From: a virus
Reading direction: 5' to 3' (one strand)
DNA length: 64,000 nucleotides
Virus genome (UHGV): UHGV-1362809
This document shows positions 37,722 through 40,293 of this stretch, piece after piece. The first letter of the stretch is position 1. Each line of letters opens with the position of its first letter. Below the pieces are notes generated by a model. That model made no database searches. It was not told the DNA's origin and worked only from the letters and a program-made list of their open reading frames with translations. The translations under genes were made by a program, and so were the position numbers.

Positions 37722-39415
37722 TTACACTGTTCTCTTGTTAAAATTTCTTCATCACAAATAGGACAATATTTATGTTCCCCTGCAATATATCCGTGAACAG
37801 GACATATTGAAAAAGTAGGAGTCAAAGTCAAATAAGGAATTTTGTACTTCGTAAATACCTTTTTAACTATGCTCTTAGCCATTTCACCTGTAGGCAGTCG
37901 TTCACCTAAGAACATGTGGAAAACTGAACCACCCGTATATTTACGTTGTAGGTCTTCCTGTAGGTCCAAGGCTTCAAAAACGTCGTCCGTGTATTGAACG
38001 GGCAACTGGGAGCTGTTATTATAATAAACGTTGTCCCCTTCTCCTGCCTGAATAATATTTGCTCCAAACTGTTTTTTATCTTCTTTAGCAAATCTATAAC
38101 AAGTACCTTCTCCAGGAGTAGCTTCCAAGTTATACATATTACCAGTTTCTTGTTGAAATTCCAACAGTCTATTCCTAATATGGTCTAAAAATTGTTGCGC
38201 AAACTTTACACCCTCTTTTGAAGTAACGGATTCAAAATTAAAATTGCGCAACATTTCATTTATGCCATTAACCCCGATAGTAGAGAAATGATTTCTCCAT
38301 GTACCCAAATATCTTGAAGTGAAAGGATAAAAACCATTTTTTAGCTGAACGTCTAAAAACTTACGTTTAGCTTCTAAGGTCTTTTTAGCTAATTCTAACA
38401 AAACATCAAGTCTATAGTACAGATTCTCTACGTCACCTTTTGCTAAATATCCTAATCTAGCGCAGTTAATAGTAACAACCCCGATAGACCCTGTTTGTTC
38501 GGCGGAACCAAATAAACCATTACCTCTTTTTAACAATTCGTGTAAGTCTAGCTGAAGTCTACAGCACATACTACGAATCATATTTTCGTCGAGGTCAGAG
38601 TTCAAAAAGTTTTGGAAATAAGGTAAACCGTACTTAGCAGTTGCTTCCCATAAACCGTCCAGTTCGGGTTTATTCCAGTCGAAGGATTTTCCTATATTAA
38701 TAGTAGGAATTGGGAATGTGAAAATACGACCTTTTGCGTCCCCTTTGGACATTACTTCAAAATAGCATTGTACAAGAAGTAACATTTCTTCTTCAAGGTC
38801 ACCGTATAAAAATTCTCTGCCTTTGAAGAACTCAATATCACTAACGGGCTGACCACCAACTAATGGTTCTTGGTCTTTTAACTTTTCAGGGCATTTAATA
38901 TCAAAAGTAACATTCGTAAATGGTGTCTGAGAACCCCAACGAGAAGGAACATTTAGATTGAAAATAAATTCCTGCATCTGTTGCAAAACTAAGGTTTTTA
39001 ACTTTTTACCCACCCATTCTTTTTGTTTAGCAACATTTAGATAATTCGTATGATTCTCGTCATTTCCCCAGCAACATTCCTTATAATCGTCCTCCAATTC
39101 GTATCTTAGTTTACGAACAAAAGGAGCAAGGTAGGTATCGAAAGAGCTAAATGCCTGTGCTCCAGCAAATTCATTTTGCAACGCTCCGAGGAAATTAACC
39201 ATTTGACCGACAGCGGCACTTAGGTTTTTGGGTGGATTAGCATCTGTTTTACCTTGAATACCATTTAAACCTTCATTTAAAAGGGTGCGTAACGACCAAC
39301 CAGCGCAGTTGTGTACAAAAAGACCACAAGTTAAGGAAAAATTATGATATTTAGGAACTTCAATATCATATACGTCAGATAATTCCTGTACTTTTTCCAT
39401 AGATAAAATTTTCAT
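37715..39415 (-). CDS. nrdD: split-intein C-half (36 aa) fused to the NrdD core through the Zn ribbon. Lacks the glycyl-radical domain.
   Basis: Starts MKILSMEKVQELSDVYDIEVPKYHNFSLTCGLFVHN then +1 Cys (CAGWSL...). Ends CPVHGY..CPICDEEILTREQCKC with no RVxGY motif. AGGA RBS upstream. Confidence 0.65.
   Translation of the reverse strand: MKILSMEKVQELSDVYDIEVPKYHNFSLTCGLFVHNCAGWSLRTLLNEGLNGIQGKTDANPPKNLSAAVGQMVNFLGALQNEFAGAQAFSSFDTYLAPFVRKLRYELEDDYKECCWGNDENHTNYLNVAKQKEWVGKKLKTLVLQQMQEFIFNLNVPSRWGSQTPFTNVTFDIKCPEKLKDQEPLVGGQPVSDIEFFKGREFLYGDLEEEMLLLVQCYFEVMSKGDAKGRIFTFPIPTINIGKSFDWNKPELDGLWEATAKYGLPYFQNFLNSDLDENMIRSMCCRLQLDLHELLKRGNGLFGSAEQTGSIGVVTINCARLGYLAKGDVENLYYRLDVLLELAKKTLEAKRKFLDVQLKNGFYPFTSRYLGTWRNHFSTIGVNGINEMLRNFNFESVTSKEGVKFAQQFLDHIRNRLLEFQQETGNMYNLEATPGEGTCYRFAKEDKKQFGANIIQAGEGDNVYYNNSSQLPVQYTDDVFEALDLQEDLQRKYTGGSVFHMFLGERLPTGEMAKSIVKKVFTKYKIPYLTLTPTFSICPVHGYIAGEHKYCPICDEEILTREQCKC
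39308..39415 (-). mobile_element. IntC half of the split intein in nrdD
   Basis: 36 aa, same length and block pattern (VYDI.V..HNF.L..G....N) as DnaE split-intein IntC. Confidence 0.6.
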
Positions 39416-39471
39416 TTTTATTCCTATACTTATTTATCCTGTTAAAACATTTGTTTAAAATATTTTCTCTA

Positions 39472-40293
39472 TTATAAACTCGCCAACTCATCATTTACGG
39501 TTAAGTCTTTAGCTTGCTTATAGGTACCGTCCTTCAACATAATTCTATGGTCGGGAGTACACTTTAACGTCTTACCATTATCTAAGTTTAATTGAACTAT
39601 CTCTCTATTTTTATAAGTGCATCTTGCATTAAAAGCTTCAGCGTCAACGGTGTTACCATTTTCGTCCTTTGCCAACACAGTAAACGTATTTTCCACACCT
39701 TTATCAGCCAATTCCTTAATGGTAATATCTCCATATTCTTTTGTCTTTATAAGTGTGTCTGGGGATAAACAATACCCTGAGAGTACATCTAAATCGTGGA
39801 TATGGAGGTCTCCATTTATGTGAGCATAAGCAGCATCTTCTGGGTATACATTATTCAACCAGTAGTTAGCAGTAATCTTACCACTTGAATTTAAAATCAT
39901 ACCACCTAAGGAATATGTTTGATTGGCATTAGCCTTAACACGCCAGTCTTGACGACCAACATATTCGTCTACCGTAGTTATAGGATCTATTTTTGTATCT
40001 CTTTTTAAAACTTTGTGTTTCGTTGCATAGGTTAAAAATTTTTCTGCAGTGTCTACAAAACCCAAACTAATAAGAGCCTTTGGTATTACACTATTAATGT
40101 CCACCGTTGTAGGAAACTTAACCTTAGCTTTTAATAGTTCTAAAACAGTAGAACATACTTCTTTCTTTTTATCCTCAAGAGTATGTTGCTCCTTAGTTCC
40201 ATTACTGGCTTTAAGTATCCCATTAAATAATAGGTCTTCACTAAATTCTACTAAGTTATTTTTTCTATTTAAGATTTTCATATTATTGTCCAT
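39472..40293 (-). CDS. nrdD: NrdD N-terminal region (ATP-cone, GDLHIHD) fused to split-intein N-half (99 aa) and ending in a stop
   Basis: ...HINGDLHIHDLDVLSGY then CLSPDTLIKTKEYGDITIKELA (Hint block A) ...DELASL stop. Different frame from the downstream part; 56-nt spacer with RBS. Confidence 0.65.
   Translation of the reverse strand: MDNNMKILNRKNNLVEFSEDLLFNGILKASNGTKEQHTLEDKKKEVCSTVLELLKAKVKFPTTVDINSVIPKALISLGFVDTAEKFLTYATKHKVLKRDTKIDPITTVDEYVGRQDWRVKANANQTYSLGGMILNSSGKITANYWLNNVYPEDAAYAHINGDLHIHDLDVLSGYCLSPDTLIKTKEYGDITIKELADKGVENTFTVLAKDENGNTVDAEAFNARCTYKNREIVQLNLDNGKTLKCTPDHRIMLKDGTYKQAKDLTVNDELASL
39475..39771 (-). mobile_element. IntN half of the split intein in nrdD
   Basis: Cys1 at residue 175 of the ORF. 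No homing endonuclease domain. Confidence 0.6.

Follow-up and report, generated by a model that had tools for sequence, protein, structure and literature searches.

A candidate naturally split intein that lacks an intervening endonuclease gene, in nrdD, the class III ribonucleotide reductase gene of an uncultured phage

We analysed a stretch of 64,000 nucleotides (nt) of the virus genome UHGV-1362809, called the window below, which is part of a 237-kb metagenome contig of the Joint Genome Institute (JGI; 3300045988), and describe its gene nrdD for a class III ribonucleotide reductase (RNR). The phage is large, AT-rich and uncultured. Its nrdD is encoded in two adjacent open reading frames (ORFs) on the minus strand, the first (N-ORF) carrying the N-terminal half of an intein (IntN) and the second (C-ORF) the C-terminal half (IntC). 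The parts of the locus are listed here in the direction of transcription, with protein lengths in amino acids (aa); the tandem stop and the AGGA were read from the sequence.

39472..40293, minus strand: N-ORF, 273 aa (174-aa N-extein and 99-aa IntN), with stop TAA and TAG directly after
39772..40293, minus strand: N-extein, ATP-cone and N-terminal part of NrdD, 174 aa, ending ...GDLHIHDLDVLSGY (...HIHDLDVLSGY); Pfam ATP-cone and NRDD
39475..39771, minus strand: IntN, 99 aa, CLSPDTLIKT...NDELASL, with Cys1 (block A) and TPDH (block B, T72/H75)
39469..39474, minus strand: tandem stop TAA TAG of the N-ORF
39416..39471, minus strand: spacer of 56 nt between N-ORF and C-ORF, which holds the ribosome-binding site of the C-ORF
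39422..39425, minus strand: AGGA, Shine-Dalgarno-like, 6 nt 5' of the IntC ATG
37715..39415, minus strand: C-ORF, 566 aa (36-aa IntC, then Cys and the NrdD core), in another frame than the N-ORF (offset 2)
39308..39415, minus strand: IntC, 36 aa, MKILSMEKVQELSDVYDIEVPKYHNFSLTCGLFVHN, with MKIL start, VYDIEV (block F, D116) and FVHN (block G, H134/N135)
39305..39307, minus strand: +1 Cys codon, the splice-junction nucleophile and also the native conserved NrdD cysteine
37715..39307, minus strand: C-extein of 530 aa and stop, comprising the NrdD catalytic core up to and including the Zn ribbon, without glycyl-radical tail

Pfam NRDD matches both ORFs, and on the C-extein it covers profile positions 52-531 of 562 (E 2e-147). 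NF006126 matches the N-extein (residues 5-176; E 1e-42) and the C-extein with 787 bits. A preliminary description of this DNA had placed a split intein at 39308-39771 without naming the strand, and this interval turned out to be exactly IntC, spacer and IntN on the minus strand. What it had described there is present as well: an N-terminal NrdD ORF that runs into the Hint block A CLSPDTLIKT and then stops, and, after a gap of about 56 nt, a change of frame and an AGGA ribosome-binding site, a new ORF with a 36-aa IntC followed by Cys and NrdD. Neither a sigma-70-like promoter nor an intrinsic terminator was found in the spacer and its surroundings, any hairpin there was insignificant (z = -0.78), and an Rfam scan of the spacer gave chance-level matches only and no family. 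An intron or riboswitch in the spacer was rejected because there is neither a significant hairpin nor an Rfam family.

Both halves are recognized by intein profiles. IntN matches TIGR01445 intein_Nterm with 42 bits against a cutoff of 24.5 (E 1.4e-10), and IntC matches TIGR01443 intein_Cterm with 28.7 bits against 15.6 (E 1.1e-6). When the joined halves were compared with PDB sequences, the NrdJ-1 intein matched with E 1.4e-11 and DnaE inteins with about 1e-9. The preliminary description had likened IntC position for position to the DnaE split-intein pattern, and the PDB sequence alignment reproduces this (dvYDIeVpkyHNFsLtcGlfvhN in the window and nvYDIgVerdHNFaLknGfiasN in DnaE). The likeness holds for the IntC motif, but the closest solved relative by sequence is NrdJ-1, from a phage “fractured gene”, and not a cyanobacterial DnaE intein. 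In an alignment of 11 inteins of four architectures, C1, T72, H75 (T72-x-x-H75 being the TPDH of block B), D116, H134, N135 and C+1 are invariant. The NrdJ-1 halves are presumably 105 and 40 aa long, compared with 99 and 36 aa in the window, and we take the DnaE split IntC to have 36 aa, as here. The break lies in the sole highly variable loop, where contiguous relatives hold a linker or an HNH domain. In the PDB alignment it falls where the two parts of the fused Npu DnaE intein (4KL5) are joined, which we take to be the natural DnaE split point.

The joined halves are confidently predicted to adopt a HINT fold. The AlphaFold model, built from a 10-row alignment, reached a predicted local distance difference test score (pLDDT) of 93.2 and a predicted template modelling score (pTM) of 0.86, and a single-sequence prediction reached a pLDDT of 40. 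A Foldseek search with the model found Npu DnaE 4KL5 (template modelling score, TM, 0.80; 26% identity), NrdJ-1 8UBS (TM 0.81; 33% identity) and Ssp DnaB (TM 0.82).

The intein interrupts NrdD at a precise point. Intein-less homologs have the N- and C-extein joined in frame at exactly the insertion point, and nearly all phage nrdD loci from IMG/VR are without an intein at the site, the exception being contig L015. The protein spliced in silico (704 aa) aligns gap-free and collinear with Thermotoga maritima NrdD across the junction, and the +1 Cys aligns with the Cys at chain position 125 of that enzyme (4COI). Every feature of a naturally split class-1 (Cys1/Cys+1) intein that can be read from a sequence is found at this locus. 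The many apparent IMG/VR matches to a query of IntC and extein (residues 12-101, which take in part of IntC) were rejected, since these genes have no intein and the alignment had paired the end of their N-extein with IntC residues. A megablast search of the region against GenBank phages gave no match, and tblastn with IntN gave distant inteins only, with at most 41.7% identity among the 40 records listed, in features annotated as other proteins.

Both intein halves are under purifying selection. Between the window and the related contig L095 we counted 7 synonymous and 2 non-synonymous changes in the whole intein (binomial p = 3e-4). In IntN alone there are 6 and 1, with a ratio of non-synonymous to synonymous rates (dN/dS) of 0.04, and the dN/dS of the exteins is 0.03-0.05.

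To place the locus among its relatives, we ran a protein search with the N-ORF and obtained six clusters of 269-280-aa proteins which likewise end at IntN. P0001 is a near-identical twin cluster of the window, P0002 and P0003 form one lineage, and P0004-P0006 are three more. Three of these four diverged lineages are represented by contigs L097-L102, while that of P0004 is known from protein. The inteins of L097-L102, which are only 49-55% identical to that of the window in IntN, are broken at the equivalent position. The IntN of the relatives ends in ...NIETME, ...DEIMKI or ...DELAEI, the position of the N-ORF stop is kept within about one codon across four diverged split lineages, the IntC of all split lineages starts with MKI, and a purine-rich AGGA/AAGGAG stands at the equivalent place in all relatives.

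Between the intein halves of L097-L102 lies a free-standing endonuclease-like gene of 323-333 aa. Its start is at the IntN stop or a few bases from it, and its overlap with the IntC start is 11-20 nt (L098, L099, L102). Its product has three CxxC...CxxC zinc-finger modules (DUF723/CapR-type matches) and a conserved C-terminal nuclease-like core. The Pfam matches (DUF723, CapR, REase_MTES_1575, DUF559) are weak and sub-threshold, with DUF723 just reaching the cutoff in L102; the PHROGs family containing it is annotated as HNH endonuclease, and no relative was found in PDB. Because the Pfam matches are so weak and there is no PDB relative, we name it a putative homing endonuclease, without placing it in the Vsr-like family described by Dassa et al. 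2009 (Nucleic Acids Research 37:2560, PMC2677866). The preliminary description had stated that the window's intein has no endonuclease domain. This is true in that only 56 nt lie between the halves, but the absence is most likely secondary, since relatives hold a free-standing endonuclease gene where the window has its spacer.

The insertion site, the extein junction GY|C[AS]GW, is also occupied by contiguous inteins, which are homologous to that of the window (35-43% identity) with equal catalytic residues. Some are mini-inteins of about 135-164 aa (P0012-P0015, P0069) or 143-159 aa (L103, L105, L114, L125). Others have 250-273 aa, namely L015 with an in-frame HNH domain, L128, L195, L196 and those of Chromatium okenii/C. 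weissei (L185-L187). As bacterial genomes or metagenome-assembled genomes (L185-L187, L195, L196) carry inteins here, the site is common to cellular and phage nrdD. Besides, L112 (665..1383) and L113 (3501..4219) carry a split allele of the L099 lineage with an internally deleted and frameshifted endonuclease gene. Of this gene residues 1-28 and 245-323 remain, joined out of frame, and the ORFs are about 302 nt apart rather than 961. The intein halves of both contigs are intact (95-97% identity with L099), as are, in L113, the two NrdD ORFs. Five states thus occur at one site: contiguous mini-intein, contiguous large or HNH-containing intein, split intein with endonuclease, split intein with deleted endonuclease, and split intein with 56 nt.

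L099 and L100 are 96-100% identical in nucleotides from upstream of nrdD to about 200 nt into the C-extein, including the intein-endonuclease cassette (3742..5990), while the rest of the C-extein, nrdG and the tail (5992..8534) are 83-92% identical, with a synonymous rate (dS) of 0.85 in the C-extein. Such a mosaic is the pattern expected of recent endonuclease-driven homing or gene conversion, with ordinary recombination as the alternative.

Further insertions occur elsewhere in nrdD. In L097 (3875..5440) the C-terminal part is broken again, by a 176-aa ORF with intein-splicing matches at both ends and the next ORF 13 nt on, which suggests a second split intein in nrdD. In IMG/VR, L001, L008, L021, L027, L043, L048 and others have in-frame nrdD insertions, presumably inteins, at three or more other sites, approximately at residues 126-133, 248/249 and 461/462 of the window's C-extein, and some genes hold two or three.

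The spacer of the window was compared with the ends of these endonuclease genes. In the frame that stands to the IntC start codon as do the frames of the three nrdD-locus endonucleases, the spacer encodes RENILNKCFNRINKYRNK, a peptide which, when anchored at that codon, aligns gap-free to RPHCVNSIVKAINKLRER, the C-terminal tail of a homologous endonuclease in the helicase locus of the window, which is described further below. The BLOSUM62 score is 29 against a shuffle mean of -11.7, and 5 of 20000 shuffles reach the observed score; at the nucleotide level 30 of 56 positions are identical, which 23 of 5000 shuffles reach. Unanchored local alignment of the spacer to tails is marginal, with the observed score reached by 23-906 of 2000 shuffles. 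The tails of L098, L099 and L102 are mutually dissimilar too, except for the closest pair. Endonuclease tails diverge fast, and their comparison is weak in both directions. The spacer itself diverges by 5.4% between the window and L095/L096, compared with 1.6-2.4% in the flanking coding DNA. The 56-nt spacer is probably what is left of a free-standing endonuclease gene that was lost, and would stem from its 3' end.

Taking the locus as a whole, we think it likely that the phage nrdD holds a naturally split, trans-spliced class-1 intein which is the endonuclease-less end state of a “fractured gene”. NrdD is most likely matured by protein trans-splicing, the association and the chemistry being drawn from knowledge of the family. 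This is favoured because the residues are invariant, the HINT fold is predicted, selection is purifying and the excision is precise and collinear. The two ORFs would be co-transcribed, most likely so because they are 56 nt apart without a terminator between them, and would be translated separately, the second from its own AGGA ribosome-binding site. IntN, which ends the 273-aa product, and IntC, which begins the 566-aa product, would then associate into one HINT domain, in which Cys1 would form a thioester with the aid of T72/H75, the +1 Cys would attack it, Asn135 would cyclize with the aid of H134 and D116, and an S-to-N shift would leave Tyr and Cys linked by a native peptide bond. This would yield a 704-aa NrdD core with ...HIHDLDVLSGY-CAGWSL... 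restored. In the ancestor, as in present-day relatives, the intein halves would have been separated by a free-standing zinc-finger endonuclease gene, and deletion of this gene would have left the 56-nt spacer, which supplies the ribosome-binding site and the start context for the IntC ORF.

Several other explanations of the locus were weighed. Contiguous mini-inteins occur at the same site in other contigs, so the split could be thought an assembly or sequencing artefact, or the gene a contiguous mini-intein read through by recoding; we give this almost no credence. The two-ORF layout with its 56-nt spacer is found in three assemblies of different source, namely JGI 3300045988, ERZ27271816 of the European Nucleotide Archive (ENA; 235 kb) and Logan SRR29134117, of which the latter two are about 2% divergent from the window in nucleotides, and the spacers of L095 and L096 have the same 56 nt with 3 substitutions. 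The preliminary description had considered a single-base indel that would make the intein contiguous. This fails in view of the shared layout and also of the reading frames: the N-ORF ends in a tandem stop, the frames of the N-ORF and the C-ORF each hit stops within the spacer, and it is the third frame that is open across it (a 39-aa ORF at 39375..39494, overlapping the IntC start), so joining needs more than one indel. Nor was a structured RNA found, and the linker of 4-25 aa which contiguous relatives have at the break position cannot be aligned to the spacer. A decaying pseudogene, broken by a mobile element and non-functional, would fit a gene in pieces in a genome rich in endonuclease-type selfish genes. 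It is very improbable in view of the low dN/dS of exteins and IntN between the window and L095, the intact ORFs of all pieces, the retained and conserved nrdG and glycyl-radical tail, and the persistence of the organization across lineages whose synonymous sites are saturated. Only slightly less improbable is that the NrdD fragments assemble non-covalently and the intein halves serve as a dimerization module without splicing. Split RNR subunits that work unligated do exist, as in NrdA of Aeromonas phage Aeh1 as cited in PMC2677866 and PMC3045599. Against this stand C1, T72, H75, D116, H134 and N135, which are needed for splicing and not for association and are invariant across lineages 35-55% identical. 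The insertion also lies directly before a conserved NrdD Cys, in a motif unbroken in all intein-less homologs, and therefore an unspliced complex would keep a 135-aa domain within that motif.

The alternative that deserves most attention leaves trans-splicing unchanged and concerns the history. The split could be ancestral and never accompanied by an endonuclease in the window's lineage, with endonucleases later invading the intergenic spacer of sister lineages, as the free-standing endonuclease-like DUF7487 genes at varying intergenic positions around the nrdD of relatives might suggest. We consider this rather unlikely, because the spacer matches the tail of the window's own homologous endonuclease, and does so as far from the IntC start as would be expected, and because L112/L113 demonstrate that endonuclease decay with retention of the split does occur in the family. 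Besides, in relatives the endonuclease gene either adjoins the IntN stop or runs across it, and it also covers the IntC start; in the model of Dassa et al. 2009 these signals are brought in by the invading element. Several observations nevertheless weigh against our interpretation. Judged by intein identity alone, the window's lineage stands farthest from the endonuclease-bearing ones and resembles their sister, so that one gain is as parsimonious as one loss and parsimony alone cannot choose between them. The similarity of the spacer is significant for one of four tails only, that of a paralog in another gene, and the anchored test gave no similarity to the tails of the nrdD endonucleases of L098, L099 and L102. 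Co-transcription is argued solely from the absence of consensus signals. In DnaE split inteins the halves attract each other by opposite charge; here both halves are mildly acidic (net -3 for IntN and -2 for IntC), and a DnaE-type electrostatic steering is therefore not evident. Taking the anchored tail match, the faster divergence of the spacer and the decay in L112/L113 together, we regard loss of the endonuclease as the more likely history.

The known system nearest to the locus is gp41-7. Dassa et al. 2009 (PMC2677866) defined the “fractured gene” as a free-standing endonuclease gene between split-intein halves and reported a single endonuclease-less locus, gp41-7, as “step III” of the gene-breaking model; the RNR cases listed there are NrdA and NrdJ, none being NrdD. 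Like the window's nrdD, gp41-7 is a phage DNA-metabolism gene in two adjacent same-strand halves with a split intein and no endonuclease gene between them, and its sister alleles carry a free-standing endonuclease gene. The window differs in its host protein, a class III RNR (NrdD), and in having no significant hairpin, whereas a conserved hairpin lies 5' of the C-part of gp41-7 (PMC2677866). The DUF723-type zinc fingers of the relatives' endonucleases are also not mentioned in PMC2677866. In the strict sense of a fractured gene, an endonuclease gene lies between the halves in L097-L102 and in the helicase locus of the window; the window's nrdD is not one, because this gene is absent, and is an endonuclease-less derivative like gp41-7. 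The endonuclease overlaps IntC, as in the fractured genes of Dassa et al. 2009, in relatives and in the helicase locus (7 nt), and in the window's nrdD it is the 39-aa ORF, a probable remnant in the frame of the three nrdD-locus endonucleases, that overlaps the IntC start.

Other systems share part of these features. NrdJ-1 (Global Ocean Sampling, GOS, metagenome; PDB 8UBS) likewise has an RNR host, a phage-type fractured gene and the canonical split position, but the host is a class II RNR, the insertion site is another one, and an endonuclease gene lies between its halves. The cyanobacterial DnaE inteins (Npu, Ssp; 4KL5, 1ZD7) are Cys1/Cys+1 class-1 inteins with the motif VYDI.V...HNF.L..G....N and the same split loop, but their halves are at distant loci of a cellular genome, whereas those of the window are 56 nt apart in a phage operon with NrdD as host. 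With neither a DnaE host nor unlinked halves, the window resembles the DnaE type in fold and motifs only. The contiguous NrdD inteins share the extein junction and the catalytic residues of the window and differ in being a single ORF. In Aeromonas phage Aeh1, according to passages in PMC2677866 and PMC3045599, a phage RNR gene, nrdA, is similarly broken in two ORFs by an endonuclease gene, mobE, but without an intein, and its fragments work unligated.

Downstream of the C-ORF follow two further genes of the same enzyme.

37098..37721, minus strand: nrdG, activating radical-SAM enzyme, overlapping the C-ORF end by 7 nt; TIGR02495 NrdG2 with 144 bits against a cutoff of 131
36896..37066, minus strand: glycyl-radical tail of NrdD as a 56-aa ORF (...SRVMGYYRP...) 3' of nrdG; Pfam NRDD 531-562 of 562 with 29.9 bits against 26.2

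The protein of the large NrdD ORF extends no further than the Zn ribbon (position 531 of 562 of Pfam NRDD). The window, its twins and its nearest relatives, the intein-less L014 and L016 among them, share this layout with a separate tail. In 55 other phage loci core and tail are fused, and in L001-L006 and L017-L019 the tail is an ORF of its own immediately 3'. Stand-alone tails form ten clusters in the protein collection. We found no description of a separately encoded NrdD glycyl-radical domain in the searchable literature. It is possible, and we put it forward tentatively as somewhat less probable than its contrary, that the mature class III RNR of this clade is made from three polypeptides, two ligated by trans-splicing and the 56-aa tail docked non-covalently, activated by NrdG and exchangeable after oxygen damage like the GrcA/YfiD “spare part” of pyruvate formate-lyase.

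The window also contains a second, complete fractured gene, a ResIII/DEAD helicase at 49982..53399 on the minus strand, in which TIGR01445 and TIGR01443 both score above their cutoffs.

52377..53399, minus strand: helicase IntN ORF, the intein starting with CQVYD after ...PRSGK
51373..52416, minus strand: helicase-locus endonuclease, 347 aa, zinc-finger, homologous to the endonuclease of the nrdD relatives
49982..51379, minus strand: helicase IntC ORF, ...GLISHN and then +1 Thr

Within 52377..52900 (minus strand) the helicase IntN ORF goes on for about 75 aa past the expected IntN end (TQSIPEIPVANFDV...GNPVGIK), and it shares 40 nt with the endonuclease ORF. This extension may be what remains of another domain, or it may result from reading through into the leader of the endonuclease. 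Adjoining the fractured helicase (48718..49962, minus strand) is a gene whose 414-aa DUF7487 product contains repeated ...CL.KYG... modules and, C-terminally, a ...DFYLPKFDLYIEYNGSWTHGG... motif. DUF7487 genes occur at varying positions around nrdD in the relatives L095, L097, L099 and L101, which suggests another family of free-standing mobile endonuclease-like genes.

In the searchable literature we found no paper that joins NrdD with a split intein. The endonuclease-less stage of a split intein is already known, with gp41-7 as the example (PMC2677866). As far as that literature goes, the new points are the class III RNR as host, the DUF723-type zinc-finger endonuclease as partner in relatives, and the complete series at one site. 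With this locus class III RNR joins the short list of split-intein host proteins, and the series documents stepwise the gene-breaking model of how split inteins arise and then persist without the endonuclease. Because the window also holds the endonuclease-bearing fractured helicase, both stages are open to study in one phage. Naturally split inteins are rare and serve as tools for protein ligation, cyclization and the delivery of split genes. Any further natural pair could be an orthogonal tool, and the window adds a candidate of 99 + 36 aa with Cys1/Cys+1. If the three-polypeptide composition of the mature enzyme is true, the split intein of this phage clade would be a domesticated and obligatory maturation step that has outlived its endonuclease.

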